Shown: positions 15,542 through 60,501, counted from the stretch's first letter. The stretch: DNA of 64,000 bases from Candidatus Parcubacteria bacterium (GCA_039795775.1 JBDKLC010000004.1:21982-85981), one strand, 5' to 3'. A program made the numbers and translations. The notes: a model not told the origin generated them from the letters alone.

Positions 15542-17896
15542 ATGAAAACAAACCAAACACGTCTGATGTTGGCCGCCTTGTGGCTGCTAACTTTCTTCAC
15601 TGCAACTGCTCGCAGCGACACGATCAATGGCTATTATGGCTACACCGTGGCGCCCGCGCGCGATGATTATCCTGACTATCCGGTGTTCCAAACCTGGAGC
15701 ATTGATTTTCAGGGAAGTCTCTACAACGGAGCGGACTCGCCTAGCCAGGGGGTTCCGCATTCATATAAGCTCTTCCGTTCGGGAGGTATGCACGTTGAAG
15801 CTCATCGTCTCATCTCTTCGGTGACGACGCTCGGGCTATGGGAATCGGAGATCGACGCAAACCGTCCTCCGCTCCCTGGGGAGACACAACAAAATCCCTT
15901 CAATATCCAGAAAGGCAATCAACTCGTCCTCGGAATCCGGCTGCAAAGCCAAACCAAATTCCGACTTAAGGATATTGTCTATGGGGTGGGAACTACGAGT
16001 TCCTCTGGGATCTTCGGATACCAGAAAGACATGGCTGCACAAGCCACGTTTAAGATCCCATTCATTCTGGGCCGTTACTACGGAGCAGATGGCATCGCCG
16101 GCACGCCGGATGATGTCTCCTACGGAAACTTCACGCCGAATACGGCGCCGATCAACGAGATCACAATCATCATTGGTCAAGGCATAAACATGGATGCTGA
16201 GACCGGAACAACTGATGCTGAGCGTCTTCATAAAGCGCTTTCGAAATTCAACGAAGACTTCCAAGTCTGGGCCACCGCTAAGGTATGGCCCTACGATGAT
16301 TCGAGGACTACAACGCCTTTCGAGGTGACGGGTCCCCAGCTCACTGTTCTCGCGGTGAATCCCATCATTCGCACTGCTCCGACTTCACAATCGGCGCGGC
16401 GCGGACACAACGCTACCTTTACGGTGAGCGCGACAGGCAAAGACTTGAGTTACCAATGGTTCCGCGACGGGGCGACGATTGATGGTGCGACAAGCGCCAG
16501 CTACACAATCAGCTCAGTAACGGACGCCGACGATGCAGCACAACTGCGCGTAACGGTAACGAATAGTTTTGGTGAGGCAGTCAGCGATGACGTCTCGCTC
16601 ACGGTGACACCACCGTTTGCACCCACAGCTGTGACTGGTAGCGCCTCTGGCGTAACCACAAACAGTGCGGTGCTTTCGGGCACCGTGAACACCAACGAGG
16701 AACCCTCAACAGTCTGGTGGATAGAGTACGGGGACAACAACTCGTATTCGAATCTCACACCCCTGACGGCGCTTCAAACGTCGGCAGATATGCAACAAGT
16801 TTCGGTCGCCATCGGCGATTTGATTCCACGTCGGGACTACATGTTCCGGATCGTTGCACAAGGGCCAGGCGGCACAACCTACGGTGAAGATCACTTCTTT
16901 ACTACGGCGACGCCGACACAACCCTTCCTGGGTGTGAGCGGGACCTTCCAAGGTCTCATTGGTGATAATGGCGAGGGGATGATGAATATCACACTCGCCA
17001 AGACTGGTAAGTTTACTGCTGTAGTTTCCTTCGGGGGCAAGCGGTATAGCGTCAAAGGTCGTTTCGACAATGACGGCAAATTCTTGGTTCAGCTCGGCAA
17101 GTCCGGGTTGCTCCTGAGCTTGTCGCTCGATGTTTACGATACCGGCGAACTTACGGGTGGAATTGTTGGTGCAGGAGGTGGAGACGTTCAATTCGTCCGC
17201 CGCGCGGTGTATAGCCGCAAAAATCCAGCACCACAAACAGGGGACTACACCTTGCTTGCGCATCCGACGGAAATCGTCGGTCCAATTCCTCAGGGCGACG
17301 CGAGTCTGCTCATGAAGGTCACCAAAACCGGCCACGTTACACTGGTCGGTAAACTACCGGACAACACGCCAATCTCCCAAGGAGGAGCTCTGGCAACCGA
17401 TAACTCATTTCGCGTCTTCACTCGCCCCGGGCGAAAAGGCGTGATCGCTGGATTTGTGGCCTTCGAGGCTACGACCACAAAAGATCTCTCCGGAGATCTC
17501 TACTGGAACAAGCCAGCAAATGAGAAGGCAAAGCAGTATCCGCAAGGATTCGCTGCAAGCCTGTCGGCCGAAGGTTCTCGCTATGTCGCGGAGCCTTGGA
17601 CACAGTCGTGTCCGCCTGCTAGCCTCTCTCTTGAAAGAGGCAATCTTTTGAGCGAAATCAATCGTTCGCTCACCGGCACACCGAAGGGATTCGTTGTGCA
17701 AAACCCTGGAGGTGAAGGCCTTCAGTTGAAAAGAACAAGCAGAGGGTTGGTAACCGGGAGCTTCGTGCACCCGCTCACCAACAAACGTGTCCCATTGAGG
17801 GGCGTATTACTCCAGAAATCTGGAGGGGGTGGTGGCTACTTCGTAGGTCCTCAAGAGACCGGAAGTGTGGTTGTCGAGTTAGCTACTGGAATGTAG
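15542..17896 (+). CDS. Large secreted Ig-like plus FN3-like domain protein (adhesin-like), compositionally foreign
   Basis: 784 aa; signal peptide MKTNQTRLMLAALWLLTFFTATA; Ig I-set-like segment YQWFRDGATIDGATSASYTISSVTDADDAAQLRVTVTN; FN3-like segment; perfect SD AAGGAGGG 6 nt upstream; GC roughly 55% or higher against ~40% flanks. Confidence 0.6.
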   Translation: MKTNQTRLMLAALWLLTFFTATARSDTINGYYGYTVAPARDDYPDYPVFQTWSIDFQGSLYNGADSPSQGVPHSYKLFRSGGMHVEAHRLISSVTTLGLWESEIDANRPPLPGETQQNPFNIQKGNQLVLGIRLQSQTKFRLKDIVYGVGTTSSSGIFGYQKDMAAQATFKIPFILGRYYGADGIAGTPDDVSYGNFTPNTAPINEITIIIGQGINMDAETGTTDAERLHKALSKFNEDFQVWATAKVWPYDDSRTTTPFEVTGPQLTVLAVNPIIRTAPTSQSARRGHNATFTVSATGKDLSYQWFRDGATIDGATSASYTISSVTDADDAAQLRVTVTNSFGEAVSDDVSLTVTPPFAPTAVTGSASGVTTNSAVLSGTVNTNEEPSTVWWIEYGDNNSYSNLTPLTALQTSADMQQVSVAIGDLIPRRDYMFRIVAQGPGGTTYGEDHFFTTATPTQPFLGVSGTFQGLIGDNGEGMMNITLAKTGKFTAVVSFGGKRYSVKGRFDNDGKFLVQLGKSGLLLSLSLDVYDTGELTGGIVGAGGGDVQFVRRAVYSRKNPAPQTGDYTLLAHPTEIVGPIPQGDASLLMKVTKTGHVTLVGKLPDNTPISQGGALATDNSFRVFTRPGRKGVIAGFVAFEATTTKDLSGDLYWNKPANEKAKQYPQGFAASLSAEGSRYVAEPWTQSCPPASLSLERGNLLSEINRSLTGTPKGFVVQNPGGEGLQLKRTSRGLVTGSFVHPLTNKRVPLRGVLLQKSGGGGGYFVGPQETGSVVVELATGM

Positions 17897-17918
17897 CAGC
17901 TCTCGAATCCCGTCGTTT

Positions 17919-17944
17919 CCCCCGGGTGCGCAAGCACCCGGGGG
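17919..17944 (+). terminator. GC-rich hairpin terminator after the foreign gene
   Basis: CCCCCGGGTGC-gcaa-GCACCCGGGGG followed 11 nt later by a T9 run. Confidence 0.5.
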
Positions 17945-18090
17945 AACGATGAGGATTTTTTTTTGCATTTTTTTGCAAAAAGTTTTTTATAAACACAACT
18001 TCATTGTATGTAGGGTTCAGATTGATTATAATTGGAGAAGCAAAATAGTCTTCTCTATTTTTTATAATTTATATTCTTGCGTATCAAATA

Positions 18091-18435
18091 ATGTTTATGA
18101 AAGAATCTCTCCGTACTTTTTTTAGAAATAATAAAAAACTCATTTTGAGCGTATTTATTGTCTGGGGTTTTGTTCTTATTGCTGTTCTTGTAGTAGCTGC
18201 ATATAGAAATAGTTTACAGCAGTCGAGTTTGACACCAAAAGTTCCTCCTGGATATATTGCTCCAATTCCTCAATCTAAAAAAGAACTTATTTTAAATGAA
18301 ACTGATCCGTATGCAGTACCTGTTATTATTTCTGACACTCAGAAACAAAAACTATTAAATAAGAAAGATACTGGAGCTATAAAAACACCAAATCTATCAA
18401 ACCAAGAGAAAGAATTAATTATTCAAGGAAATTAA
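18091..18435 (+). CDS. Hypothetical small membrane-anchored protein (first gene of pilus-associated operon)
   Basis: 114 aa; single N-terminal TM helix, no recognisable domain. Confidence 0.4.
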   Translation: MFMKESLRTFFRNNKKLILSVFIVWGFVLIAVLVVAAYRNSLQQSSLTPKVPPGYIAPIPQSKKELILNETDPYAVPVIISDTQKQKLLNKKDTGAIKTPNLSNQEKELIIQGN

Positions 18436-18438
18436 TTT

Positions 18439-19512
18439 ATGAAAAAGAAAATCACACTCGTAGTTCACTTTCTTTTGCTTCTCATACTTCTTGTTGGAGG
18501 AATTGCTGTTCATCGAACCGTAATGGCTCAGGTCTCAACAGGAAATGTCACAGGATGGGCATGGTCAGACAACATTGGATGGGTAAGTTTCAATTGTTCT
18601 GACGTCTCAGATTTGTGTACAACGGCTTCATATGGAGTAGATGCAGATCCAGACACTGGGGCTCTTTCTGGGTATGCTTGGTCGGAAAGTGTTGGATGGC
18701 TTAGTTTTAATCCAGGGGATACAGGAGGATGTCCTGATGGAACTAATTGTGAAGCTAAAGTAGATTTTGCTACAGGAAAAATTACTGGATATGCACGTTT
18801 TTGTTCGGCTACTGCCAATGGCAATTGTACTGGAGGTATAGGTCCAGATGGATGGGACGGTTGGTTGAAACTTTCTTCGCCAGGTTCACCAAGTCTTTCA
18901 TCTCCAGTACTCGATGGGTCACAAGGTGCAACATATGATGCAAATACAACAAAAATTATGGGATATGGATGGGGAGGTGATGTTGTTGGATGGCTCAAGT
19001 TTAATAATTCATACAACGGAGTAAAAATTACTATAGATGTAAATAATCTTAAATGTAAGATCGACGAAACTGAATTTGATCTCAATACATTTATTACACG
19101 GTATAAGACAGGAGTAGCAACATCCACAGAAGCTTGTGAGTCATACTCTTCAACTTGTGAACAAGTAACTCCAACAGAAGCTGACTGGAACACAGATATT
19201 ACACCTATAGCTGACGGAACATATTCATATAGTACATGTACAGTTTCTTCAAGTACTTCGTGTGCAGAAGGAAATAACCCTTGTGATATTTCTGCATATA
19301 CTCAGGGTACAAATCTAGGACAGACAATGTCGTGTGGTGAGCAACGAAAGTTTTATAAACAAAAAGTTGTAGTAAACAACGCTGCTGGAACTATCTCATG
19401 TGAATCAAATGGAAATGCCGCTGTGCGAGTATGTGACAACGGAGTACTTACAGGTGATTCTTCATTCAACAAAGTTATTTGTCGAGTGAATCCGTATCAG
19501 AAAGAGCGATAG
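18439..19512 (+). CDS. Secreted Cys-rich repeat protein with tandem GxAWSxxxGWxSFN repeats
   Basis: 357 aa; signal peptide; repeats TGWAWSDNIGWVSFN, SGYAWSESVGWLSFN, MGYGWGGDVVGWLKFN plus a degenerate copy; many Cys; start overlaps previous stop by 4 nt (operonic). Confidence 0.5.
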   Translation: MKKKITLVVHFLLLLILLVGGIAVHRTVMAQVSTGNVTGWAWSDNIGWVSFNCSDVSDLCTTASYGVDADPDTGALSGYAWSESVGWLSFNPGDTGGCPDGTNCEAKVDFATGKITGYARFCSATANGNCTGGIGPDGWDGWLKLSSPGSPSLSSPVLDGSQGATYDANTTKIMGYGWGGDVVGWLKFNNSYNGVKITIDVNNLKCKIDETEFDLNTFITRYKTGVATSTEACESYSSTCEQVTPTEADWNTDITPIADGTYSYSTCTVSSSTSCAEGNNPCDISAYTQGTNLGQTMSCGEQRKFYKQKVVVNNAAGTISCESNGNAAVRVCDNGVLTGDSSFNKVICRVNPYQKER

Positions 19513-19586
19513 AAAATAAAAGTATCTGGGGAAACTCAGATACTTTTGTTGTAAGTTTGGTATAATTATTGAGATAACACATTAAC

Positions 19587-20549
19587 ATGATGAAACAAGT
19601 AGTACATATAATAAAAGTAATAATAATTGTTGGAGTATTGTTGGTTGGAGGACAATATCTCTATGCCTTTGGTCCGACATGTGCTCCACCAGATTGTAAC
19701 TCTGATGCTCCTATCAATGCGAGTTCAACTGATCAGATTAAGACAGGAGGTCTTACTATAGGTAAGAATATGTTTATTCAAGGAGCTACATGGGTTACGG
19801 GTCTCGACCCACAAGATAACGTTACTCCTCTCCAAATAGGTCTCGTTGTTCAAAACGGCCAAGTGTTGCTCGGTACAACAACACCAGTGGCGAACGCATC
19901 TAGTACTATGAGACTTGTTGTAAATGGTGGAGCTGGAGCGAGTGAATTCTGTGATCCAAGTGGAGTAAATTGTATTCCGTGGGATGCTTTGTACGATAGT
20001 GTATACAGTCCAGGTGGTTTCAACTGTTCTTCTGTTCCAACATTTACTACGTTGTACAATAAAGAGACAGGATATTACTTCAATCAACCTGTATTTGGAG
20101 AAAGTGGATACTACGGTGCTTCGTCTGCTCGAGGTTGGCAAAAAGTGAGCATGCCAGCTGCATGTTCAGAACCTGATGGTTGTATTATTCGAACAAAGAT
20201 TTATAAACGATATTCTGTACCAGGTTGGACATGTAATAACAGTGGTTGTACAGGTTGGTACGAAGATAAGCTGTATAAGATTACTGATACTGAATATCGA
20301 CAAGAAGCTGGTTCTGGTGCTCAGCTTTGGTGGAGTGCCTTCTCTACAAGTGGAAAACTCAAAAACGGCGATACTACGTCTTCAAACATTACATCAGGTG
20401 CTGGATCAATTGAATCTGGTGCATACAACCTCAGAGATGATCGAAATGCAACACTTTCTGCAGATGATGAACTCTCAAATGCACAATGGAGTCCATTTGA
20501 CAGTACTCGAAGTTACGGAGCAGAAGTATTTGTTTGTACAAACTCATAG
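19587..20549 (+). CDS. Hypothetical signal-anchored Cys-rich protein upstream of pilB
   Basis: 320 aa; N-terminal hydrophobic helix VIIIVGVLLVGG, paired Cys throughout; hairpin terminator at 20577-20615. Confidence 0.45.
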   Translation: MMKQVVHIIKVIIIVGVLLVGGQYLYAFGPTCAPPDCNSDAPINASSTDQIKTGGLTIGKNMFIQGATWVTGLDPQDNVTPLQIGLVVQNGQVLLGTTTPVANASSTMRLVVNGGAGASEFCDPSGVNCIPWDALYDSVYSPGGFNCSSVPTFTTLYNKETGYYFNQPVFGESGYYGASSARGWQKVSMPAACSEPDGCIIRTKIYKRYSVPGWTCNNSGCTGWYEDKLYKITDTEYRQEAGSGAQLWWSAFSTSGKLKNGDTTSSNITSGAGSIESGAYNLRDDRNATLSADDELSNAQWSPFDSTRSYGAEVFVCTNS

Positions 20550-20666
20550 GTATTGTTTCTCTCAATTAAATATCAAAAAGAAAACATCCGGATAACTTCC
20601 GGATGTTTTCTTTTTGTGTACTTCTACTTCTGATATAATAAGAACGTATTTGAAAAAATAATTTTC

Positions 20667-22424
20667 ATGTTTCTCGAACCTACCCAATTAAAAAAGTTTA
20701 TTTCAGACTCAGGTCTTGTTACTCAAGACGATATTACTGCTGCAGAAAAAGTAGCTGAAGAAAAGAAGCAAAATCTCGGTGAAGCCCTAGTGTCTGCCGG
20801 AAAGATTACAGAAGACGATTATCGACGAATCCAAGCGTACCTCATTGGTATTCCATTCGTAGACCTCAAGAGTCAAAAGCTTGAATTTGATGTGCTTTCG
20901 CTTATTCCGGAACCTATTGCTCGAAATCACAATATCGTAGCTATTAAGAAGAAGGACAATGCTCTTGAAGTAGCCATGCTTGATACAGACGACCTCTCTG
21001 CGATCGACTTCATCAAAAAGAAGACTGGCCTCAAAGTTCTTCCTCGACTTACAAACACTGAGTCAATGCGTGCTGCTCTTATTCAGTACCAAAAGAGTTT
21101 GAAAGCTGACTTCGGAGATATCATTCAACAAGAAGCATCATCTCTCAAGATGGTAGCTCAAGACTCTGCGCCAGGGGAGGAAGTATCAGGAGACGACCTC
21201 AAGAAGCTCGCTGAAGACTTGCCTGTAGTACGTATTGTGGACACATTGCTCAAGCATGCAGCTCTCCAAGGTGCATCAGATATTCATATAGAACAGATGG
21301 AAAATGAAGTAGTCGTACGATATCGAATCGACGGTATGCTTCGAGATGCCATGATTTTGCCTAAAGCAGCCGGCGCAAGTATCACTGCTCGTATCAAAGT
21401 ACTCTCGAACCTCAAGCTCGACGAAAAACGACTCCCACAGGACGGACGATTCAAGATTGAACTCAATGATGAAAAGATTTCGTTCCGAGTATCTATTTTG
21501 CCTACATATTATGGTGAAAAGACTGTAATGCGACTTTTGCGAGAAAGTGTATCTGGGTTCTCACTCGAAACTCTTGGCTTCCACGGACAGGGTCTTGAAG
21601 CTATTCATGATGGAACACAAATGACAGAAGGTATGATGCTTACCACTGGTCCTACTGGTTCTGGTAAGACAACGACACTCTATACAGTGCTCGATCTCCT
21701 CAACACACCTGATGTAAACATCTCTACAGTAGAAGATCCAGTTGAATATCAGATGAAACGAGTAAATCAGACACAAGTAAAACCTGAAATCGGATTTACA
21801 TTCTCTTCAGGTCTCCGATCTCTTCTCCGACAAGACCCAGACATCATTATGGTGGGAGAAATTCGAGATAACGAAACAGCGTCACTTGCTATTAATGCGG
21901 CCCTCACAGGTCACGTAGTGCTCTCTACGCTTCACACCAACTCAGCAGCGGGTGCTATCCCACGACTTATTGATATGAAGTGTGAGCCGTTCCTTCTTGT
22001 ATCTACACTCAAGGTGGTAGTAGCGCAACGACTTGTGCGACGACTGAGTAAAGCAAAAGAAGAATATTTCCTTACAAAAGACGAATTGGCTTCTATTAAA
22101 AAGAAAATTGACATGGATCGAGTACTCAAGGCTCTCAAAGATGAAAAAATTGTAAAGCCTGATGCTGAATGGAAAGACATTCCACTGTATCGACCGAAAG
22201 CTGACAAAGATTCTGACGATGGCTACCACGGCCGAGTTGGTATTCATGAAGTTCTCAAGATGAGTACACCCATTAAAGAATTGATTATTAAGGGTGGCAC
22301 ATCTGACCAAATTGAAGAACAAGCAAAGAAGGAAGGTATGCTTACGATGATTGAAGACGGTGTATTCCAGGCGGTACAAGGGATGACATCGATTGAAGAA
22401 ATCTTGCGAGTAGTTTCTGAATAA
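20667..22424 (+). CDS. pilB: Type IV pilus assembly ATPase PilB (GspE family)
   Basis: 585 aa; N-terminal GSPII_E_N-like domain, Walker A TTGPTGSGKTTTL, Asp/His boxes of secretion ATPases. Confidence 0.85.
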   Translation: MFLEPTQLKKFISDSGLVTQDDITAAEKVAEEKKQNLGEALVSAGKITEDDYRRIQAYLIGIPFVDLKSQKLEFDVLSLIPEPIARNHNIVAIKKKDNALEVAMLDTDDLSAIDFIKKKTGLKVLPRLTNTESMRAALIQYQKSLKADFGDIIQQEASSLKMVAQDSAPGEEVSGDDLKKLAEDLPVVRIVDTLLKHAALQGASDIHIEQMENEVVVRYRIDGMLRDAMILPKAAGASITARIKVLSNLKLDEKRLPQDGRFKIELNDEKISFRVSILPTYYGEKTVMRLLRESVSGFSLETLGFHGQGLEAIHDGTQMTEGMMLTTGPTGSGKTTTLYTVLDLLNTPDVNISTVEDPVEYQMKRVNQTQVKPEIGFTFSSGLRSLLRQDPDIIMVGEIRDNETASLAINAALTGHVVLSTLHTNSAAGAIPRLIDMKCEPFLLVSTLKVVVAQRLVRRLSKAKEEYFLTKDELASIKKKIDMDRVLKALKDEKIVKPDAEWKDIPLYRPKADKDSDDGYHGRVGIHEVLKMSTPIKELIIKGGTSDQIEEQAKKEGMLTMIEDGVFQAVQGMTSIEEILRVVSE

Positions 22425-22466
22425 TATTCAGAATGAGATGGAGATACGGTGATATAATGTATATAA

Positions 22467-23678
22467 ATGAAATTTTCGTACACGGCTAAAAAGCCTGATG
22501 GCTCAACATACGACAGTACAATGGAAGCTGCTGATAAAGCTGCCTTCTATCGTGAACTACGAAAAATAGGTGATACTCTGATTAGTGTAAAGGAAGGGAA
22601 GAAAAGTGTTGGACAAATGGAAATTAACCTTCCATTTCTCAATCGTATAAAAATGATCGATAAGATCACGTTTGCTCGAAACATTAGTGGAATGCTCGAA
22701 GCTGGATTGCCACTCTCTCGTGCCTTAGCAGTATCTGAAAGACAAGCTTCAAATGTAAAACTCAAAAAGATTTATAAAGAGATCAACGAGTTTATTACAT
22801 CTGGTAAAACATTTCATGAAGCATTGGCACAGCATCCAAAGGTGTATTCAAGTCTCTTTATCTCAATGGTAAAAGCTGGCGAAGAAAGTGGAGATCTCGC
22901 AGGTTCTCTCAAGCATCTCGCTTCACAGATGGAAAAAACATACGTTATTCAGCGAAAGATTAAAGGTGCCATGATGTATCCAGGTATTATTCTTTCAGTT
23001 ATGGTACTCATCGGTATTTTGATGATGATTTTCGTAGTGCCGGCACTTACAAAGACATTTAAGGATTTGGGTACAAAGCTTCCAGCTTCTACTACATTTA
23101 TTATTGCTACAAGCGACTTTGCCTCAAATCATTACATCTTGTTAGTTCTTATCATTTTGGCAGCCGTCGTTGTCTTTATCTTGCTCCTTAAGACAAAAAT
23201 TGGTAAACGATACGCAGATTTTATTGTGTTACACTTGCCGGTTATTTCACTTATTGTAAAAGAGAGTAATGCTGCACGAACAGCTCGAACGCTTTCGTCA
23301 CTTCTTTCGGCTGGTGTTGATTTGCTCCTCGCGGTAAAGATCACTGGTGAAGTAATGCAAAACTCATTTTATAAAGAAGTTCTTCAGAGAACTGAAGTAG
23401 CTGTAGAAAAGGGGGACCCAGTATCAAAAATCTTTGAAGAAGAAACAAATTTGTATCCAGTATTCGTAGGAGAAATGATGAGTGTGGGTGAAGAAACTGG
23501 TAAATTTGCTTCAATGCTTACTGGTGTAGCTGTGTTCTATGAAAACGAAGTAGAAGAAAAAACAAAAGATCTTTCTACTATTATCGAACCAGTACTTATG
23601 GTGATTATCGGTGCCGGTGTAGGATTCTTCGCTGTCTCTATGATTATGCCGATGTATTCAGTGATGAATAATTTGTAA
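22467..23678 (+). CDS. pilC: Type IV pilus inner-membrane platform protein PilC (GspF family)
   Basis: 403 aa; duplicated GspF domains with three TM segments. Confidence 0.85.
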   Translation: MKFSYTAKKPDGSTYDSTMEAADKAAFYRELRKIGDTLISVKEGKKSVGQMEINLPFLNRIKMIDKITFARNISGMLEAGLPLSRALAVSERQASNVKLKKIYKEINEFITSGKTFHEALAQHPKVYSSLFISMVKAGEESGDLAGSLKHLASQMEKTYVIQRKIKGAMMYPGIILSVMVLIGILMMIFVVPALTKTFKDLGTKLPASTTFIIATSDFASNHYILLVLIILAAVVVFILLLKTKIGKRYADFIVLHLPVISLIVKESNAARTARTLSSLLSAGVDLLLAVKITGEVMQNSFYKEVLQRTEVAVEKGDPVSKIFEEETNLYPVFVGEMMSVGEETGKFASMLTGVAVFYENEVEEKTKDLSTIIEPVLMVIIGAGVGFFAVSMIMPMYSVMNNL

Positions 23679-23710
23679 AGATTGAGTATACTAAGGTCTC
23701 TAAATTTATT

Positions 23711-24055
23711 ATGAAGAAAATAAAAACTATATCTAAAGCGATCGTTGGAACATTTTGTGTATATGTGTTGGGTATGCTCATGACTACATCTCCAGTAGAT
23801 GCCGTAATGCGAGCAAATTTTCCTGATGCCAACCAACTTCAACCACTTCCACAGTCTATAGCCCCAAGTCCAAAGGGGAATATAAATGCTACACATAAAG
23901 TAGCTCCCGACGTACAAAAAAATCCTGCACCAGTAGAGGAGGCAACGACTTCTCCAATACAAAAAGCCGAGGGTTTCTCTCTCCCTTGGCTTATAAGTAC
24001 GCTCTCTGTTGTTTTGTTAGTAATTGCTTTGACTCTCGTTCTCAAAAAGAAATAA
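23711..24055 (+). CDS. Small secreted protein with C-terminal hydrophobic anchor and KKK tail
   Basis: 114 aa; N-terminal signal, Pro-rich middle, C-terminus FSLPWLISTLSVVLLVIALTLVLKKK. Confidence 0.4.
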   Translation: MKKIKTISKAIVGTFCVYVLGMLMTTSPVDAVMRANFPDANQLQPLPQSIAPSPKGNINATHKVAPDVQKNPAPVEEATTSPIQKAEGFSLPWLISTLSVVLLVIALTLVLKKK

Positions 24056-24068
24056 TCTTTATTTCTCT

Positions 24069-25454
24069 TTAATTACTTGTCCAACTGAGTGGTTGATATC
24101 CTGAACTTGAAAGAGGAAAGCTTGGTGGTGCCGCGTAGAGAAGATTACTATCATATGTACTTTCTGTTGTCTGATATCCGGATGTAACATCATCTGAGCC
24201 ATTGACCCATGTCCATGTCCACTGACCGAATGTCATAATCGATCCGTACACTGTGATTTTATTTTTAATTTCACCTGAATAGAAAAAGAATTGTGCACTT
24301 CCGTTTTGAGCAATAAGTGCGGCGTCTATTTCGAGGTCATCAGGTGCTCTGTATGTCACCACGATATCTTTTTGTGCAAGAAGGCCAAGAGAATGATTAC
24401 CATCTTTTGCGAGGTAGGTAATATTATTTGGAATATAGATTGTTGGAGCGGTTGCTGCATTATAAGGGAGTTTTGATGCCGCAACCATGACACGTCCATT
24501 TACTACACCTTCTACCCACACGTTATCTTCGATATATATAATCCCGTTCGATGGAATAGCTTGGGTTGAAAGAAGTGTTCTGTTTTTATAGTCAATATCT
24601 TCGTTTCGTGCGTTTCCTGCAACATCCCAACCTGATGGTGTAGACCAAACACTTGTTACCTTGTAGATGCTTACAGTACCGTTTGAGTTGAATACGAGAG
24701 AATATCCTTGGCTGTTTGATGGAGCGAGATAAATACCGCCTGATTGTGCGTTTGCTTTCATACCAGCGAGGTTTGATGTGAGGGCAGAGAAGTCTACGGC
24801 CGGTACAGGATACTGCCAGAAATTTTTTGTTGTTTGGTTTGCGCTTCCCCAAATGCCAGCTTTTGTTGTAGGACAAGGACTTCCTTGTGAAGAAGGACAA
24901 CTATAAGTAGATTTTGCCGATGTAATAGGAGCATTTCCTGTTCCATCGAATCGAATTCCGTTATTAGACTTGAGCTGACCGTTAACTGTTTCATTGTCGC
25001 CCACCCAGATGACTGCATTTGTAAGGAAAGAGTATTGTGCAAGGGAAGGGATACCGTATTTTGCAGTAATTGTTCGCTTTATTTGCGGCTGATCTGTAGT
25101 CCAGCCAGTAGAAGAAATAGTGACTACAGTAGAGCCTGTTGGTGGAGGTGTGATAGTGAGACTGTATGTGCCGAGAACTTTTTGAGTATCAGTATCGACA
25201 TAGTTTCTAATATATGGACCAGATGTAGCTGTACCGTTTGTGTAGTCAGTTGGATAGTGAGCCAATCGCCACTGATAGTAGTTAATACCAGCCTCAGCAA
25301 TTTGTAGAGCCTGTTCTTTTGAAACAGTGGTAGCAAGTACTCGTGTTCGGATGACAAGCGATTGAATGATAGGCATCATCATCAACGAAAATATAAAGAT
25401 GACGATAAGAAGTAACACTAATATTTCTCCACGTTGTTTGTTTTGATGAGCCAT
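24069..25454 (-). CDS. Large pilus-associated protein (PilX/minor-pilin-like), N-terminal hydrophobic anchor
   Basis: 461 aa; N-terminus RGEILVLLLIVIFIFSL hydrophobic helix, Thr/Ser/Asn/Gly-rich remainder; co-oriented with two prepilin genes upstream. Confidence 0.4.
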   Translation of the reverse strand: MAHQNKQRGEILVLLLIVIFIFSLMMMPIIQSLVIRTRVLATTVSKEQALQIAEAGINYYQWRLAHYPTDYTNGTATSGPYIRNYVDTDTQKVLGTYSLTITPPPTGSTVVTISSTGWTTDQPQIKRTITAKYGIPSLAQYSFLTNAVIWVGDNETVNGQLKSNNGIRFDGTGNAPITSAKSTYSCPSSQGSPCPTTKAGIWGSANQTTKNFWQYPVPAVDFSALTSNLAGMKANAQSGGIYLAPSNSQGYSLVFNSNGTVSIYKVTSVWSTPSGWDVAGNARNEDIDYKNRTLLSTQAIPSNGIIYIEDNVWVEGVVNGRVMVAASKLPYNAATAPTIYIPNNITYLAKDGNHSLGLLAQKDIVVTYRAPDDLEIDAALIAQNGSAQFFFYSGEIKNKITVYGSIMTFGQWTWTWVNGSDDVTSGYQTTESTYDSNLLYAAPPSFPLSSSGYQPLSWTSN

Positions 25455-25459
25455 CTAAT

Positions 25460-26113
25460 TTAGTTTCCTAAGTTTGTTTTTAAGCTTCGAAGTGTTCCAC
25501 CGGCTTGAATTGTATACGTCGTTGTCGCTGTTCGAATATTTTGTACCTTAACGAGTAGATTCATTTTAGCAAATTTTACCTGAGTGATGTTCACAGGTTG
25601 TGTAAGTGCAGATGTTGTTCCTGCATATGTATCAGCATAGTAATAAAATATTGGTGTTGATGTCCCGTTAGAAACATCAGTGAGTACAGTAGAAACTGTT
25701 TCAGAAGCAGAGTTGTATGTCAGCGGATTTCCAGACGGTGTAATAATGCCTTTGAAAAGAGAAGTGCCTGAAAGATAATAACGAACACGTCGTACAGTTG
25801 TAGAGCTGTTTGAGCCGAATGTTGTGTAAAGAATAATTTGAGATGAACTTGCATCATTGAGAGCCGCCGCACCATTATTTGCCGTTGTAGAGTTCCGTAA
25901 TTCGTTCGAAAAGTTAAAGACTACCAATCGAGCCTGATCAACGCCGTTGATTGCTTTTGTTTGTTGAGTAGATGTAACAAATATTTCTCGGAGCATTGTT
26001 GTAGCTCCAAGCATGATGATTGAGAATATACCGATAGTTACTACTGTTTCTACAAGTGTGTAACCAGGCATATATGACCGTGCATATTTTTTTGAACTTA
26101 TTTTCATGTGCAA
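25460..26113 (-). CDS. Type IV pilin-like protein (prepilin-type N-terminal cleavage/methylation domain)
   Basis: 217 aa; PGYTLVETVVTIGIFSIIM matches the class III signal (G|[FY]TLxE plus hydrophobic helix). Confidence 0.65.
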   Translation of the reverse strand: MHMKISSKKYARSYMPGYTLVETVVTIGIFSIIMLGATTMLREIFVTSTQQTKAINGVDQARLVVFNFSNELRNSTTANNGAAALNDASSSQIILYTTFGSNSSTTVRRVRYYLSGTSLFKGIITPSGNPLTYNSASETVSTVLTDVSNGTSTPIFYYYADTYAGTTSALTQPVNITQVKFAKMNLLVKVQNIRTATTTYTIQAGGTLRSLKTNLGN

Positions 26114-26122
26114 TATGTTTGC

Positions 26123-27916
26123 CTAAGAACTAAGCAACACTGTAAGTACATTATATCCGCTTATGTTCAAATTTGTTACTGTCTTTGTTGTATAACCTGT
26201 CATAGATGTTTGCACTTGATAGTCATTTGCAGCACTGAGTCCAGGGAACATAACTTGTCCCGGAGTAAAGCAACCTGATACATAGTTCACATCGAGGCTT
26301 GTAAGTACGGGTGTAACTGTTGTTGTACTGTTACTAAGATATGCTTTGTATCGAAGATATCGGTTATTGTTGTGAACACTACTAATAGATGTACCTGGCA
26401 CCGTGTAGTAGGTAGTTGAGGCACCATCTGGACCTAAGAAATTCCACGTAGTAGTCGAACCATCGTTACTTGAGGCAATTTGGAATCGTAGGGTTGTTGA
26501 AGCTGTTTGAGACTGAGGTTCCCAGTTGAGAGTCGTATAGAGGGTTGATGTTGAACCAGAATCAAATGTAGAAGACTGCAACCAGCCTGATGATGAATAA
26601 ACACCGAATGTTTTCTTGAGTCGTACACCAGTAGGGAGAGTAGCTGTATCAATATTTCCATCATTTGAGAAATACATAGTACTTGTACCCATATTTGCTT
26701 GTCCTACACCACCTGTCCAATCTTGTTGAGAGAAGGCACTACCGCCAGTAATAAGAGTATCGTCATACCCAGATCGTGTGAGTCGTACATTTGCTCCTTC
26801 GATAGCCACTCCAGTTGCAGCATCTTTTACAATTACCAAAAGACTATTTGTTGTTATAGGGCCAACAATAAGGTTAAAGTTCTGAGATGTCTGAGGAAGG
26901 ATGTTAATTTGCTGGATAGGAGATGATCCATAAATCATATAACTTGAAGTAGAGAGTGCTGGGGTATAGTTGTCCCATTCAATATTTGAAAGCACCACTT
27001 GGCCACTACCGTTTGATGTATAGGTATTATTAAACTTGTAGACACTCGGAGTACCAATGATTTTTGCACCTTTTACCCCGATTCCGACATTTGATAGAGG
27101 TGCACAGCTCTGGTTGAGGGTATTAAAGGTAAGATTACTCAACTTATCGATAGAAAAACTGATTTGAGTCACTGTTCCATTCAAAATCGTAGCATCTGGC
27201 TTAGTTGGGTTAGGGTTTCCAACTGAGACAGGATATGTCTGATCTGAAGAATACCCTGTTTTTGTAGCAGTTACATGATAGTTATTTGAACTCTGAGGGA
27301 GACCCACTTCTGTCCAGTAGCCATTGGCATCAGTGGTTCGGGTAATGTTGATATCTGGGGTTAAAGCCGTATTTGTGATGTTTATTTGGGCTCCAGGCAC
27401 AGGCTGACCTACGGCGTCGAATACTTGTACTGTAAAAGCACCCGCATTATTGGTGTTTTCAAGACCTGCTGGGGTGATATTAGTAACAAATGTTGTTACT
27501 ACGTTAGTTCGGGTGTTTTTTATGTTTAATTTGACCTGTTTGTAGTCTGTTGGGGCAGGATCAGTGCTTGACGCGATTGTTCCATCTGCTGGGTCGTCTA
27601 CAAAGCTACTTTCATAGTAGATTTGATAGGTAATGTTGTTATAGCTTGTCGATGTGGCATTTGGAAGGTCTACAAGGATACCAGTCGGGTTACCGTTTAC
27701 GGTACCAACCTGGCTATAGGGAAGGTTTCTAACAATTTCCATATACTGAGCAGCGAGATTTGAAATAGTAGTGTTTTCTCGATACACACCCGCGAGCTTA
27801 ATAATAAGCGTACTTGTAGAGTAGACAGTAAGAGCGAGCCCAGCAAAAATACCGATACTAATAAGTGTTTCAATTAAAGTAAATCCTTTTTGATTTCTAG
27901 AGATAGAACGTTTCAT
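26123..27916 (-). CDS. Large type IV pilin (prepilin N-terminus plus ~560-aa Thr/Ser/Asn-rich domain)
   Basis: KGFTLIETLISIGIFAGLALT canonical prepilin motif; start placed at MKRSIS within ORF 26123-28006. Confidence 0.7.
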   Translation of the reverse strand: MKRSISRNQKGFTLIETLISIGIFAGLALTVYSTSTLIIKLAGVYRENTTISNLAAQYMEIVRNLPYSQVGTVNGNPTGILVDLPNATSTSYNNITYQIYYESSFVDDPADGTIASSTDPAPTDYKQVKLNIKNTRTNVVTTFVTNITPAGLENTNNAGAFTVQVFDAVGQPVPGAQINITNTALTPDINITRTTDANGYWTEVGLPQSSNNYHVTATKTGYSSDQTYPVSVGNPNPTKPDATILNGTVTQISFSIDKLSNLTFNTLNQSCAPLSNVGIGVKGAKIIGTPSVYKFNNTYTSNGSGQVVLSNIEWDNYTPALSTSSYMIYGSSPIQQINILPQTSQNFNLIVGPITTNSLLVIVKDAATGVAIEGANVRLTRSGYDDTLITGGSAFSQQDWTGGVGQANMGTSTMYFSNDGNIDTATLPTGVRLKKTFGVYSSSGWLQSSTFDSGSTSTLYTTLNWEPQSQTASTTLRFQIASSNDGSTTTWNFLGPDGASTTYYTVPGTSISSVHNNNRYLRYKAYLSNSTTTVTPVLTSLDVNYVSGCFTPGQVMFPGLSAANDYQVQTSMTGYTTKTVTNLNISGYNVLTVLLSS

Positions 27917-28047
27917 TGAGGTTTGGAGAACTGAGTAAATTTTACCACATATGTGAGATGTGTGTGGAGCAAAATGATGTGGTCTGGTGTGTATTTTGAG
28001 GTACAACTATCTCCCGTCTATTTCTTACATCTGCTATAATTTCGAAC

Positions 28048-30050: not shown

Positions 30051-30485
30051 TTATGAGAGTGAAATTTCTGTTTTGATCTTTTCGAGTACTTGTTCAGCTT
30101 CGCCTTGTACGTATGTCTTGTGTGGCATATCTTCAATTCCATCATCAGATATTCTCGGAATAAGGTGAATATGAGTGTGAGAGACTTGTTCTCCATTCAT
30201 CATTACCATCATTCCATCAGAATCAACCGCATTTCGTATATCGATGGCTAGCTTTCGGGCCGTAATGATAAGACGACACATTGTTTCGTCTGGGGTAGTA
30301 AGGATATTTTCGAAATGGTCTTTTGGAATAACAAGCGTGTGTCCAGGATTTATTGGTTTAATATCGAGAAAAGCAAAGGTATTGTCGTCCTCATATACCT
30401 TATGAGCTGGGATTTCCCCTGTAATAATTTTACAAAAAATACAATCGTTGTGTGTTTGGTGTAGGTCTTGAGTCATAAGGCACAT
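30051..30485 (-). CDS. HIT-family (histidine triad) hydrolase
   Basis: CIFCKI...HTHIHLIP histidine-triad motif; start at internal Met of ORF 30051-30542. Confidence 0.75.
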   Translation of the reverse strand: MCLMTQDLHQTHNDCIFCKIITGEIPAHKVYEDDNTFAFLDIKPINPGHTLVIPKDHFENILTTPDETMCRLIITARKLAIDIRNAVDSDGMMVMMNGEQVSHTHIHLIPRISDDGIEDMPHKTYVQGEAEQVLEKIKTEISLS

Positions 30486-30521
30486 TGTATGATAAAATCG
30501 GCGAATAGCAATTGCTACCTT

Positions 30522-32219
30522 ATGCCAAATTACGCATTTCAACCCTCAAATGGCACTACGTTGACCGAACAACTCTTGTTCAGTCGAGGCCATAAAACAA
30601 AAGAGGCGCAAGATGCATTTCTTAGTCCAGACTACGATAGGGGTATTCACGACCCATTTCTCCTCAAAGATATGGATGTAGCCGTAGAACGGATTGTTCG
30701 AGCAATCAAAAACAATGAAAGAATTGTTGTGTATGGTGATTTCGATGCAGATGGGGTACCCGCGTCAGTGCTTATGCATGATTTTTTTAAGAAAATTTCA
30801 TATACCAATTTTTCAAATTACATCCCACATCGACATCTTGAGGGGTTTGGACTCCACAAGGATGCCATTTCGAAAGTGAAGGAAGAGGGAGCCCAGCTTC
30901 TCATTACGCTCGATTGCGGCATTACTGATGTTGATGAAGTCGACTTTGCAAACAGCCTCGGCATTGACGTCATTATCACGGATCACCATTTGCCAGGGCC
31001 TGAGTTGCCACAGGCGGTGGCTGTTGTAGATCCAAAACGTGCTGACTGCTCGTATCCATTCGATATGCTCTGTGGAGCCGGTGTTGCATTCAAACTTGTT
31101 CAAGGACTTCTTGCATATGATCGATCTCATGAAAACGTCTGGAATGTAAAAGAAGGATGGGAAAAGTGGCTTCTCGATATGGTGGGCATTGCCACACTTT
31201 CTGACATGGTGCCGCTTCATGGCGAAAACAGAGTGCTCGCATATTTTGGTTTGAAAGTTCTTCGAAAGTCACCTCGACTTGGTTTGGTGAAATTACTTAA
31301 ATCACTCGATATCAAACAACAACATCTTGTTGAAGATGACATCGGATTTTTGATCACGCCTCGTATCAATGCTGCATCTCGAATGGCAAACCCAATGGAT
31401 GCTTTCAATATGCTTACAGCTGCTACTGATGAAGAAGCAGAACGAACTGTTACATTTTTGAATACATTAAATGTTGAAAGAAAAAGTGCTGTTGCTGTAA
31501 TGATGAAAGAAATTAAAAAGAAAGTTGAAGGAAGAGATCTTACATCAAAATCTGTTTTTGTTTTAGGAAATCCAAATTGGAAACCGTCGCTTCTTGGACT
31601 TGTTGCAACATCACTTGTTCGTGAATATGACCGACCTGTTTTTTTGTGGGGGAGATCAGAAGACGGAACGCTCAAGGGTTCAACACGATCAGATGGTCGA
31701 GTCGACATTGTTCAACTTATGCGTGCGGTACCACGAGAAATATTTATAGACTTTGGTGGTCACGTAATGTCAGGTGGATTTTCTTTGACCGACGATCATG
31801 TTCATCGATTTGAAGATGAACTTTGTACAGCACATGATTCACTTTCGAAACAAGAAATAAATTCTTCAGTACTTATTGATGCGCGTATCACATCAAATGA
31901 TGTGACATGGGACTTATTTTCAACGATTGAAAAACTTGCACCATTTGGAGAAGCAAATCCGAAACCACTTTTTATGGTGGAGAATGTTGTGCTTACTAAT
32001 GCAAAAACGTTTGGTAAAACAGGTGATCACTTTGAGGTTACATTTACAGGTGCGAAGGCAAAGAAACTTTCAGCTATTAAGTTTTTTATTGAAGATAACG
32101 AAATATACAAGAATTTAAAACCGGGTGATAAAGTTCATCTTGTTGCAAATTTAGAGAAGTCTATGTTCAGAAATTTTCCTGAGCTTCGACTGCGAATTGT
32201 TGATATACTACCAGCATAA
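30522..32219 (+). CDS. recJ: Single-stranded-DNA-specific exonuclease RecJ (start uncertain: alternative TTG at 30561)
   Basis: DHH (VVYGDFDADGV, ITDHH) and DHHA1 (GGH) motifs; the long ORF from 30468 would overlap the divergent HIT gene. Confidence 0.8.
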   Translation: MPNYAFQPSNGTTLTEQLLFSRGHKTKEAQDAFLSPDYDRGIHDPFLLKDMDVAVERIVRAIKNNERIVVYGDFDADGVPASVLMHDFFKKISYTNFSNYIPHRHLEGFGLHKDAISKVKEEGAQLLITLDCGITDVDEVDFANSLGIDVIITDHHLPGPELPQAVAVVDPKRADCSYPFDMLCGAGVAFKLVQGLLAYDRSHENVWNVKEGWEKWLLDMVGIATLSDMVPLHGENRVLAYFGLKVLRKSPRLGLVKLLKSLDIKQQHLVEDDIGFLITPRINAASRMANPMDAFNMLTAATDEEAERTVTFLNTLNVERKSAVAVMMKEIKKKVEGRDLTSKSVFVLGNPNWKPSLLGLVATSLVREYDRPVFLWGRSEDGTLKGSTRSDGRVDIVQLMRAVPREIFIDFGGHVMSGGFSLTDDHVHRFEDELCTAHDSLSKQEINSSVLIDARITSNDVTWDLFSTIEKLAPFGEANPKPLFMVENVVLTNAKTFGKTGDHFEVTFTGAKAKKLSAIKFFIEDNEIYKNLKPGDKVHLVANLEKSMFRNFPELRLRIVDILPA

Positions 32220-33032: not shown

Positions 33033-34439
33033 ATGAGCATGAAAAGTGCTCATATTTTTTTATTAATTTCTATTGTTTCAATTGTGGCACTCCGGTGGCA
33101 CTTTTTGCCCACAGACAGTCCACAAATCGCACAATTTTTGCTGTCATTACCGAGCAGTACAAGTAGTGTGCAAATGATAGGAAATATTATTGATGAACCA
33201 GAAAAAAAGAAGACCCACATAAACGTGTTGATAGAGGTTGAACAATATGGATTAGCGAGTAGCACGGACATGGACAACACCGTTCAAGTTCAATATAAAA
33301 AGAACGTCCTTGTCCTTGCCTCGATCCCACAATTTAGTTCAGTCAATTATGGTGACAAAATTAAAGTTGTCGGAAAAATAAAAAAGCCTGAAGTTATCAT
33401 TTCTGAAGATGGGTCTGAATTTAACTATCCGGCATATCTTGCAAAGAGCAACATTTTTTATGTGATGGATGCCAAGAGTTCTGAGATCATCTCAACTGGA
33501 GGAGGTAATCCAATTAAGTCAGATCTTTTGTTGTTCAAGAAACAGCTTTTGCAAAACATAAATAACGTACTACCAACACCTCACTCTTTTTTAGCAGGTG
33601 GTTTGATTATTGCAGGAAAGGGATCGCTTGATGATGAACTTCAGGAAGAATTTAAAAGGGCAGGACTTGTACATATTGTTGTGCTATCGGGTTTCAATAT
33701 TACGATTGTTGGGCAATTCATTATTTCTATATTCTCTTTTTTGCCACTGATGCTTAAAAGTATATTTGGAAGTTTGGGAATTATTGCGTTTTCAGTTATG
33801 GCAGGTAGTAGCGCAACTGTTGTCCGGTCGGTGGTCATGTCTATTATTGGATTGTATGCACGGGTATCCGAAAAAAGTTATGACGCTCTCCGTGGTCTGT
33901 TGGTTGCTGGTGTTGGTATGGTTGTTCACAATCCAAGAATTCTTTTGTATGATCCGTCGTTTCAACTTAGTTTTATGGCAACGCTCGGACTTATTCTTTT
34001 GGGTTCGACTGTTCAGAAATTTTTTATGTGGGTTCCTGAAACATTAGGGATGAGAGAAATTGTTACATCAACTTTTGCTACTCAGATATTTGTGACACCT
34101 CTTATCTTACATTTGTCAGGAATGATCTCTCTTGTTTCACTTTTTGTGAATATCTTAGTGCTTCCTGTTATTCCCTTGACCATGTTGTTCGCGTGTCTTT
34201 GCGGTGTGGTCAGTTTCATACATCCAAGTTTTTCAATACCATTCTCATTTGTTTCATACATTCTTCTTACATACGAGCTTTCACTAGTGCACATTTTTTC
34301 ATCACTTTCGTTCGCCGCAATTTCTCTTCCTAAAATTTCTACAGGCGCAACCTTAGCGGTATATTCAATATATGGAGTTATTTTTATTTGCATACAATTC
34401 GTACAAAAAATTTATAAAACAAAAAGCCCGCCAACATAG
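33033..34439 (+). CDS. comEC: ComEC/Rec2 DNA-uptake channel protein, N-terminal plus competence domain only (no MBL domain)
   Basis: 468 aa polytopic membrane protein; GLVHIVVLSGFNITIV competence-domain motif. Confidence 0.7.
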   Translation: MSMKSAHIFLLISIVSIVALRWHFLPTDSPQIAQFLLSLPSSTSSVQMIGNIIDEPEKKKTHINVLIEVEQYGLASSTDMDNTVQVQYKKNVLVLASIPQFSSVNYGDKIKVVGKIKKPEVIISEDGSEFNYPAYLAKSNIFYVMDAKSSEIISTGGGNPIKSDLLLFKKQLLQNINNVLPTPHSFLAGGLIIAGKGSLDDELQEEFKRAGLVHIVVLSGFNITIVGQFIISIFSFLPLMLKSIFGSLGIIAFSVMAGSSATVVRSVVMSIIGLYARVSEKSYDALRGLLVAGVGMVVHNPRILLYDPSFQLSFMATLGLILLGSTVQKFFMWVPETLGMREIVTSTFATQIFVTPLILHLSGMISLVSLFVNILVLPVIPLTMLFACLCGVVSFIHPSFSIPFSFVSYILLTYELSLVHIFSSLSFAAISLPKISTGATLAVYSIYGVIFICIQFVQKIYKTKSPPT

Positions 34440-60410: not shown

Positions 60411-60501
60411 AGAAAATTAAAGGACAGCGACTATGAGACAAATCCCCGAAAAGGGGATTTTCCACATCTACAAATATAAAAAAGGTGTATAATCAAGGAC
60501 A

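Follow-up and report, generated by a model that had tools for sequence, protein, structure and literature searches.

Type IV pili (T4P) and unnamed adhesins are essential in the only genetically tractable group of ultrasmall epibiotic bacteria (PMC10633639, PMC11665869), and T4P have been studied in Saccharibacteria (PMC12206443, PMC10633639). A different kind of attachment apparatus has been described in Bdellovibrio: the mosaic adhesive trimers (MATs) of Caulton et al. 2024 combine, behind a signal peptide, a conserved N-domain with a trimeric, intertwined beta-prism and a tip that varies. They fall into S74 and non-S74 subfamilies, and are used on the predator surface for prey recognition; according to their authors, it is not known which surface element the N-domain binds to, and an interplay with T4P is possible (PMC10769870). 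Here we analyze a 64,000-nt stretch of a Candidatus Parcubacteria metagenome-assembled genome (MAG; GCA_039795775.1, JBDKLC010000004.1:21982-85981), called the window below, in which the T4P genes pilB and pilC are preceded by three open reading frames (ORFs) for apparently exported proteins, ORF1, ORF2 and ORF3. We found that ORF2 and ORF3 belong to two families, named here GW and F3, which are spread across Patescibacteria, recur together as a cassette and are enriched beside T4P genes. The region is best read as two separate things: an ordinary T4P module and, upstream of it, a cassette for exported proteins that is probably transcribed on its own. Whereas T4P modules of this sort are known, neither Pfam (2025) nor NCBIfam (2026) nor PHROGs has an entry for the GW family or for the F3 family and its N-terminal signature, and these families and their cassette are undescribed in the searchable Patescibacteria literature.

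The comparisons rest on a sample of 84 related loci, including L081 and L082. The loci L001-L080 were gene-mapped, and 33 of these 80 are fully flanked, with at least 8 kb on either side.

Two protein families and a small companion

ORF2 is 100% identical to RL094_163, a hypothetical protein of a Candidatus Parcubacteria MAG. Its homologues make up at least 568 protein clusters, all of them hypothetical proteins of Patescibacteria, and at least 576 GW loci were confirmed in GTDB species genomes. The conserved part of the family consists of the leader and a domain of ~160 residues with G[YW]AWSxx[IV]GW[ILV]xF repeats, in which several Gly and Trp columns of the alignment are invariant. In ORF2 the repeats occupy aa 39-51, 78-90 and 175-187, with DGWDGW at 137-142. 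In the AlphaFold 2 (AF2) model of ORF2, the stretch of about aa 40-200 is an all-beta domain with a predicted local distance difference test score (pLDDT) mostly above 90, whereas most of the stretch 268-357 stays below 50. The C-terminal halves vary, being Cys-rich in ORF2 and carrying PKD, PF25788 or DUF4215 modules elsewhere. ORF2 matched no family in Pfam or NCBIfam at E<=0.1 or in PHROGs, and a search of PDB sequences with the GW profile returned chance antibody matches only.

Judged by eye, most GW proteins end in a short tail, P-x-[FYW]-x-E-[FI]. Under a strict pattern the tail was recovered in 25 of 75 complete GW proteins, in none of the 74 F3 proteins and in just 5 of the remaining 1,071 ORFs; it may serve as a recognition or docking tag. 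At least three of the five other ORFs bearing it cluster by sequence with the GW or F3 families. The tail also takes the form LPxWKE[IV]xP, follows unrelated C-terminal domains with no membrane segment behind it, and was seen in L003, L008, L011, L022, L028-L032 and others.

ORF3, likewise 100% identical to a hypothetical protein of a Candidatus Parcubacteria MAG (RL094_164), represents the second family. A word-indexed single-sequence search with ORF3 returned only two proteins, a single relative among them, and HMMER was needed to reveal the family: an exhaustive search of 1.84e9 proteins yielded 280 F3 representatives at E<=1e-3. Within the gene-mapped sample, an iterated hidden Markov model (HMM) found, besides ORF3, 78 F3 ORFs in 53 of the 80 loci, nearly all of them beside a GW gene and in its orientation, often in tandem arrays of two or three paralogues. 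Members share a hydrophobic leader with an AxA-type site, a mature N-terminus of the form (A)WTxPTxxPPxxNxxAPINVxxxxQxKxGxL, repeats of the GNVGIGTxxPxxKLxVxG type, often followed by a GAxxYCDxxGxNC loop, and a variable C-terminus. The N-terminal signature of ORF3 has an extra Cys pair. Its leader was recognized by inspection as an AF2 helix at aa 2-23 followed by a cleavage site of the kind found family-wide. The AF2 model of ORF3 has a mean pLDDT of 73 and a beta-rich C-terminal half, the tip reaching about 75-86.

The C-terminal ends link F3 to tail-fibre-like proteins. An intramolecular chaperone of the tail-fibre type was predicted beforehand for some members from coiled-coil ends, and a Pfam census of the family alignment A4 (67 proteins from L001-L080) confirmed Peptidase_S74 in 6 of 67. 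Other tips include Gly_rich_2, dockerin and TSP1 domains, with Dockerin_1, TSP1_ADAMTS, AXH and Hint in single members. The family profile A4 matched the Bdellovibrio MAT protein Bd2133 (PDB 8OND) over the fibre repeat with an E value of 5.9e-5; two further PDB entries follow at E ~0.4, both under the name 'Cell wall surface anchor family protein', an annotation used for Bdellovibrio MAT proteins. We therefore could not retain the description of the upstream proteins as 'unannotatable' given in an earlier note on this DNA, nor, in view of the spread of the ORF2 and ORF3 families across Patescibacteria, their description as specific to this lineage; their characterization as exported proteins of adhesin type is supported.

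F3 proteins resemble MATs such as Bd2133 in the order of a signal peptide, a conserved N-terminus, repeats of the GNVGIGTxxPxxKLxVxG type and a putatively exchangeable C-terminal tip, and share with MATs in general the division into S74 and non-S74 subtypes, the presence of several paralogues per genome and a lifestyle of attaching to other cells. They differ in being mostly shorter (~200-700 aa versus ~1,000 aa), in having a different-looking, Pro-rich N-terminal segment of ~35-60 residues as against the beta-rich MAT N-domain of ~130 aa (the PDB entries cover MAT C-terminal fragments only), in being accompanied by a GW partner gene and a small anchor gene, and in belonging to a monoderm cell. 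F3 looks like a variant of the known tail-fibre-like MAT adhesins. We call the family MAT-like, membership of the MAT superfamily being a possibility raised by the profile match, and file ORF3 under it. The S74 domains together with the family-level match suggest that F3 proteins could form trimeric fibres. The published MAT lists include no Patescibacteria (PMC10769870), and our literature searches returned nothing joining MAT fibres and Patescibacteria.

Two observations on single F3 relatives may be recorded here. In one member Pfam detects Shufflon_N (E 5.7e-14), known as the constant part of PilV, the tip adhesin of the R64 thin pilus; Shufflon_N was not present among ten F3 members scanned singly. 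The best full-length ORF3 homologue outside its own lineage (38% identity; L082:10001-10960 in GCA_013565735.1, JACCDR011561529.1) has no GW or pil genes nearby and adjoins genes for DsbB, cytochrome b5 and DoxX, a setting that would fit a disulfide-rich exported protein.

Fibre motifs, S74 chaperone domains and coiled-coil C-terminal ends are equally found in phage tail fibres and tailspikes, and the upstream genes could be taken for a prophage tail-fibre remnant. Alternatively, they could encode cargo that the pilus machine exports as a type II-like piston, much as the pseudopili of type II secretion systems push exoproteins. We consider this pair of explanations very improbable. Prophage origin was rejected on the grounds that the genes encode Sec leaders and occupy a stable chromosomal site between housekeeping genes in many lineages, that no phage genes surround them, that ORF1, ORF2 and ORF3 have no PHROGs match, and that the GW domain is absent from the 2.9 million viral contigs of IMG/VR. 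Pilus-driven secretion has nothing specific in its favour.

GW and F3 proteins appear to draw on a common stock of modules. Between the regions following the GW domain in several GW proteins and those following the N-terminal segment in some F3 proteins we detected 13 BLAST links with 28-47% identity. Because of these links, GW and F3 look like two alternative conserved handles with interchangeable modules.

The third component of the cassette is small. In relatives, a protein of ~90-150 aa with an N-terminal transmembrane (TM) segment and two to four sEEKxxILxxL repeats adjoins the GW and F3 genes. Under a strict pattern that demands at least two EEK-type repeats, 13 of the 51 small TM ORFs next to cassettes qualify, as compared with 0 of 84 elsewhere (p = 1e-6), and a seed HMM of this family recovers ~33 proteins at E<1e-3, nearly all beside a cassette. 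ORF1 is probably the counterpart of these anchors in the window, judging by its size, topology, position and loose repeats. It has no Pfam, NCBIfam or PHROGs match, and its orthologues occupy the same position in the two closest relatives, L001 (41% identity) and L081 (111 aa). Since homologues exist for each of them, ORF1, ORF2 and ORF3 are real genes. Leaders identified by eye and the helices of the AF2 models suggest that the cassette proteins are exported by the Sec pathway. Further companions, TM-anchored proteins of ~150-185 aa (clusters c132, c166 and c167), follow the F3 genes in L009, L031, L032 and L036 and have no counterpart in the window.

Genomic settings and linkage to pilus genes

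Among 48 well-flanked loci, 35 have an F3 gene within 3 kb of the GW gene. The cassette recurs in five settings. In setting A it stands between nusA (minus strand) and pilB pilC, followed by pilins and tpiA pgk; this is the order of the window, L001, L028, L032, L035, L036, L040, L046, L057, L066, L068, L074, L080 and L081. In setting B the GW gene is followed by rny, a histidine-kinase-like gene, a response regulator and pilB pilC pilin (L009, L054, L062, L076, L077). In setting C the cassette lies inside a full T4P cluster: in L027:423-13394, pilB, a response regulator, a pilT-like ATPase and pilC are followed by three major pilins that are nearly identical to one another and by pilD; next come the small repeat protein, F3, a TM protein of 198 aa and GW, and finally four minor pilins and then ligA. 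L043 and L063 are similar; in all three of these Nealsonbacteria-type MAGs, the end of GW and the first minor pilin are 16-100 nt apart. In settings D and E the cassette is found beside the ribosomal protein/secY operon and among tRNA synthetase, uvr, gyrB and other housekeeping genes, respectively.

T4P genes are present in 23 of the 80 gene-mapped loci and, within 8-10 kb of the cassette, in 12 of the 33 fully flanked ones. For a 16-20-kb span in a genome of <1 Mb, co-occurrence in 3-10% of loci would be expected, so that the linkage amounts to a 4- to 10-fold enrichment over background (binomial p from 1e-10 to 5e-5, 2e-7 at 6%, for loci that are phylogenetically non-independent). The three distinct arrangements with T4P genes are a stronger argument for a link than the p-values.

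In the window itself, the earlier note had described the genes upstream of pilB as joined by overlapping or short junctions. This holds for ORF1 and ORF2 (3 nt) but not for ORF2 and ORF3 (74 nt) or ORF3 and pilB (117 nt). Both longer gaps contain terminator-like hairpins (Table 1). The hairpin after ORF2 is followed on its 3' side by a T-run, TTTTGTTG, and then by a TATAAT-like box, TGGTATAAT, upstream of ORF3. The palindrome between ORF3 and pilB, found in a terminator scan, is more stable than any of 200 shuffled sequences (0/200 equally stable), is followed by T residues and then a TATAAT box before pilB, and could act as a bidirectional intrinsic terminator. A GC-rich terminator closes the gene upstream of ORF1. 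These consensus-type signals argue for ORF1-ORF2, ORF3 and pilBC(-ORF6) as putative transcription units. Because stable hairpins and -10-like boxes fill both gaps, the three upstream genes probably do not form one operon with pilBC.

The reading that we put forward is that the cassette encodes secreted attachment proteins functionally allied with T4P, the cassette genes lying so often next to or inside T4P clusters because both would serve one attachment process. We give this reading an even chance of being right. Several observations weigh against it. At the level of the proteins, a Foldseek search of PDB with the ORF2 model found no neighbour (best E 0.37), the ORF3 model has no significant structural neighbour in fold searches, ORF3 retains a single degenerate fibre repeat, and the ORF3-centred subfamily profile A3 does not match the MAT structures. 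ORF1 is missed by the seed HMM of the small repeat family and is matched only by an iterated profile that drifts to an unrelated small protein. At the level of the loci, 21 of the 33 fully flanked ones have no T4P gene near and contain ribosomal, tRNA-synthetase and repair genes instead; L045 and L071 have the order nusA, cassette, tpiA without pilBC; and nusA is linked to the cassette as often as pilB (24 versus 22 loci), so that part of the linkage is inherited gene order in related lineages. The earlier note had linked the upstream proteins to the pilus and regarded variable non-pilus surroundings in relatives as an argument to the contrary. The linkage stands for the 12 of 33 loci and for those lineages whose cassette has pilD on one side and the minor pilins on the other, and the variable surroundings are real for the remaining 21.

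These observations could also mean that the cassette proteins are surface proteins unrelated to pili, GW being an anchor that binds the cell wall or glycans and F3 a free-standing fibre, with adjacency to pilBC inherited within Paceibacteria. The lack of a T4P neighbour in about two thirds of the cassettes, synteny with nusA and tig that is as strong as the linkage to pilB, the two loci without pilBC at the same site and the terminators between ORF3 and pilB would all follow from it, and Trp/Gly-rich repeats are typical of wall- or carbohydrate-binding modules. On the other hand, the linkage to T4P genes recurs in three non-homologous arrangements, one of them placing the cassette between pilD and the minor pilins, 16-100 nt from the first of these, the enrichment over background is severalfold, and the GW domain matches no known wall-binding family: CW_binding_1, SH3b/GW modules, LysM and PG_binding gave no match to ORF2 in Pfam or NCBIfam at E<=0.1. 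We regard independence from pili as possible, although we lean against it.

A more direct association would place GW, F3 or both physically on the pilus. GW would then be a functional analogue of PilY1/PilC on the minor-pilin tip, and F3 would provide exchangeable host-recognition tips at or along the pilus. The pilY1 gene sits in fimU-pilVWXY1E operons. A similar genomic position, directly upstream of a four-gene minor-pilin operon, is taken by GW in L027, L043 and L063, whereas ORF2 of the window lies upstream of pilB behind terminators. The PilY1/PilC proteins of Pseudomonas and Neisseria further resemble GW in being Sec-exported non-pilins with one conserved domain and a variable adhesin part; both GW and F3 combine a conserved handle with a variable adhesin end, and the MAT authors themselves raise an interplay with T4P (PMC10769870). 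The resemblance to PilY1 is one of analogy only. Homology was rejected, as GW matches neither the C-terminal beta-propeller of PilY1 (Pfam family Neisseria_PilC) nor PilY1/PilC by PDB sequence or fold, and the conserved domain is N-terminal in GW and C-terminal in PilY1. Furthermore, GW and F3 lack a leader of the pilin type, pil genes are far away from many cassettes, and the terminator-like hairpins appear to insulate the cassette transcriptionally in the window. A location on the pilus is unlikely in our estimate. The earlier note had envisaged the upstream proteins as pilus-tip or DNA-uptake factors; a direct role of either kind is not borne out, given the prevalence of cassettes among housekeeping genes, the loci lacking pilBC and the terminators before pilB. 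It is the alliance of the cassette with T4P in attachment that we develop below.

The pilus module and its surroundings

Table 1. Coordinates of genes and signals in the window (strand given relative to the sequence shown; a slash within a leader marks the cleavage site)
Feature	Position	Strand	Size	Remarks
Ig-domain protein	15542-17896	+	784 aa	secreted; Ig_3/I-set and fn3-like domains
Terminator	17909-17955			GC-rich; dG -44.5
ORF1	18091..18435	+	114 aa	N-terminal membrane anchor; three loose K/Q-rich repeats, SKKELILNE, TQKQKLLNK, NQEKELIIQG
ORF2, GW-repeat protein	18439..19512	+	357 aa	Sec-type leader ...VMA/QV; ~160-aa all-beta domain; Cys-rich C-terminal half; tail ...NPYQKER (19489-19512)
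Terminator-like hairpin after ORF2	19515..19550	+	16 bp	dG -20.4 kcal/mol, z -7.3
ORF3, short F3 member	19587..20549	+	320 aa	Sec leader ...LYA/FG; N-terminus GPTCAPPDCNSDAPINASSTDQIKTGGL; one degenerate fibre repeat; GAxxFCDxxGxNC loop; C-terminal beta-sandwich tip
Perfect palindromic hairpin, ORF3-pilB gap	20570..20619	either	19 bp	dG -28.9 kcal/mol, z -10.2
pilB, T4P extension ATPase	20667..22424	+	585 aa	N-terminal MshEN; T2SSE 3.9e-120, MshEN 1.6e-13
pilC, T4P platform protein	22467..23678	+	403 aa	T2SSF in two stretches, 8.3e-53
ORF6	23711..24055	+	114 aa	signal peptide, Pro-rich middle, C-terminal hydrophobic segment, KKK end
PilX/GspK-like minor pilin	24069..25454	-	461 aa	PilX_N E 4e-5, 24.0 bits (Pfam cut-off 25.5)
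Minor pilin	25460..26113	-	217 aa	N_methyl 8e-5; weak GspJ/PilW-like and ComGF matches; prepilin motif PGYTLVE at 26065
Large modular pilin	26123..27916 (mechanical ORF to 28006, 627 aa)	-	~597 aa	N_methyl 8.3e-6, CarboxypepD_reg 7.2e-13, TIGR02532; motif KGFTLIE at 27886
recJ	30468-32219			
comEC	33033-34439			Competence and DUF4131
Metallo-beta-lactamase gene	35159-36064			separate from comEC
VirD4-like protein	57600-61536 region		936 aa	weak TraG-D_C, TrwB and T4SS-DNA_transf matches

All nine ORFs claimed for this region are present at the coordinates first given for them, and the matches of PilB, PilC and the pilin-type genes confirm that this is a T4P locus, one that is real, ordinary and incomplete. 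PilB matches TIGR02538 with an E value of 1.8e-156, under the equivalog cut-off, and its orthologues in the pilB-linked loci of this lineage are 59-88% identical; PilC is matched by the GspF/PilC models of NCBIfam at ~1e-86 to 1e-89. As was noted earlier, there is no pilD, pilM/N/O or pilT: none was found among 50 window ORFs of at least 110 aa scanned with Pfam. A six-frame scan yields just two prepilin motifs, therefore the window contains no major pilin. The major pilin, PilD, PilM/N/O and any retraction ATPase (PilT) must be encoded elsewhere in the genome.

The locus resembles the T4P of Patescibacteria (Candidate Phyla Radiation) and the Com-type T4P of monoderms in its MshEN-containing PilB, its PilC and its pilins with a G/[FY]-T-L-x-E motif, in the absence of a secretin, as expected for a monoderm cell, and in the presence of comEC and recJ nearby. 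It differs from Patescibacteria loci such as L027, where they are clustered, in missing the components listed above; its minor-pilin block is inverted with respect to L005, and its pilin set is unlike that of the closest relative, L081.

The convergent block of a ~600-aa pilin, a 217-aa pilin and a 461-aa protein was confirmed, the PilX_N match of the last being below the cut-off. For the large pilin, an internal Met at 27916 is the most likely start; the protein then has ~597 rather than 627 aa and a leader MKRSISRNQKG/FTLIE; a beta-sandwich resembling CarboxypepD_reg occupies aa 192-267 of the 627-aa ORF. Homologues of the 217-aa pilin are present in L005 and L054. The 461-aa protein has an N-terminal hydrophobic stretch, ...QRGEILVLLL, without Glu5, as is also the case in cap pilins of the GspK/PilX type, and a large beta-rich body; its homologue in L005 (34% identity) is the last gene of the same three-gene block. 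PHROGs gave no match for ORF6 or the pilins.

In L005, L046, L054 and L076 the 627/217/461 set lies downstream of pilC, sharing its strand and keeping the internal order seen in the window, and the homologue of the large pilin comes right after pilC. Because relatives carry this set on the pilC strand, the convergent layout of the window appears to be a lineage-specific inversion or replacement of the pilin block. Only short imperfect pairs of inverted repeats flank the block, providing no evidence for a recent inversion. L081, the closest relative with the whole region (ORF2 64% identical), has the order nusA, a 771-aa gene, the 111-aa gene, GW, F3, pilB and pilC, followed by four same-strand pilin-type genes (153, 162, 180 and 609 aa) and tpiA-pgk. 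The first of these, a 153-aa N_methyl pilin, stands where the window has ORF6. The G+C content of ORF6 by codon position is coding-like (GC1>GC2>GC3). Pfam, NCBIfam and PHROGs contain no family for it, tblastn found no homologue in the 84 related loci, and a search of 23500-24200 for the remnant of a small pilin found none. ORF6 is a lineage-specific ORF occupying the small-pilin position of relatives.

The genes around the region are housekeeping genes typical for Patescibacteria on the upstream side (rny, clpP, tig, ppa, nusA); downstream lie tpiA, pgk, a HIT protein gene, recJ, rnhA, comEC, the S12-S7-EF-G-EF-Tu and ribosomal protein operons, and secY. The genes recJ, RNase H and comEC are situated 2.5-5 kb from the pilus genes, and the metallo-beta-lactamase gene, up to 8 kb downstream, may be a split C-terminal domain of ComEC; L048 repeats the order recJ, RNase H, comEC, beta-lactamase. 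Because comEC and recJ are so close, DNA uptake is a plausible role for the pilus itself, and none is indicated for the cassette.

Upstream of ORF1, the gene of the 784-aa protein forms an island of 54% G+C in a window of ~40%, with a third-position G+C content of 0.57 as compared with 0.16-0.36 in its neighbours. L001 (47% identity) and L081 (771 aa, 52.7% G+C) each have a homologue in this position. Database matches cover the Ig domain alone and come from Acidobacteriota, Planctomycetes, Verrucomicrobiota and Chlorobi. The gene looks as if it had been acquired horizontally, encoding a surface protein, and had not adapted to the composition of the genome. Far downstream, the 936-aa protein has the look of a VirD4-type coupling protein; together with the 344-aa ORF behind it, which has no Pfam family, it may be part of a Patescibacteria type IV secretion system.

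A possible role in attachment

If the cassette is allied with T4P in attachment, its parts could work as follows. ORF3, like other F3 proteins, would be a Sec-secreted protein of fibre type that docks through its conserved N-terminal segment and, beyond a fibre motif, carries a binding tip open to exchange. ORF2 would use its Trp/Gly-repeat domain as a handle displaying variable modules, some of them common to F3, and would end in the conserved short tail. ORF1, a small membrane-anchored repeat protein, probably anchors ORF2 and ORF3 or helps to assemble them. The conserved handles would fix the proteins to an element of the cell surface, leaving the variable ends to bind a host or substrate. 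On the pilus side, the three-gene minor-pilin-type block (large modular, GspJ/PilW-like and PilX/GspK-like), apparently inverted or replaced in this lineage to give the convergent layout, would prime and cap the pilus fibre. The cassette would act in the same attachment process as the pilus, and docking on the minor-pilin tip is possible. What the sequences show are the gene identities, the families and their conservation, the linkage and the transcription signals; the location of the cassette proteins on the cell surface, their part in adhesion and their sharing of the pilus process are inferred.

A stronger version can be formulated, in which Patescibacteria possess a dedicated host-recognition apparatus: T4P with exchangeable, tail-fibre-like tips. 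GW, though not homologous to PilY1, would play an analogous part by coupling F3 to the minor-pilin cap or by presenting modules of its own, the small repeat protein would be an assembly factor on the membrane side, and the GW C-terminal tail and the F3 N-terminus would be the docking elements. We consider it a long shot.

Three unannotated families that travel together in hundreds of Patescibacteria genomes are now named and bounded. One of them is tied to the prey-recognition fibres of Bdellovibrio, and the cassette is repeatedly embedded in pilus gene clusters, which offers a testable link between pili and fibre adhesins. Host recognition by ultrasmall epibiotic bacteria is largely unknown, and the cassette provides concrete candidates for determinants of host specificity. 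If they are such determinants, the variable tips and the tandem paralogues should track host range.

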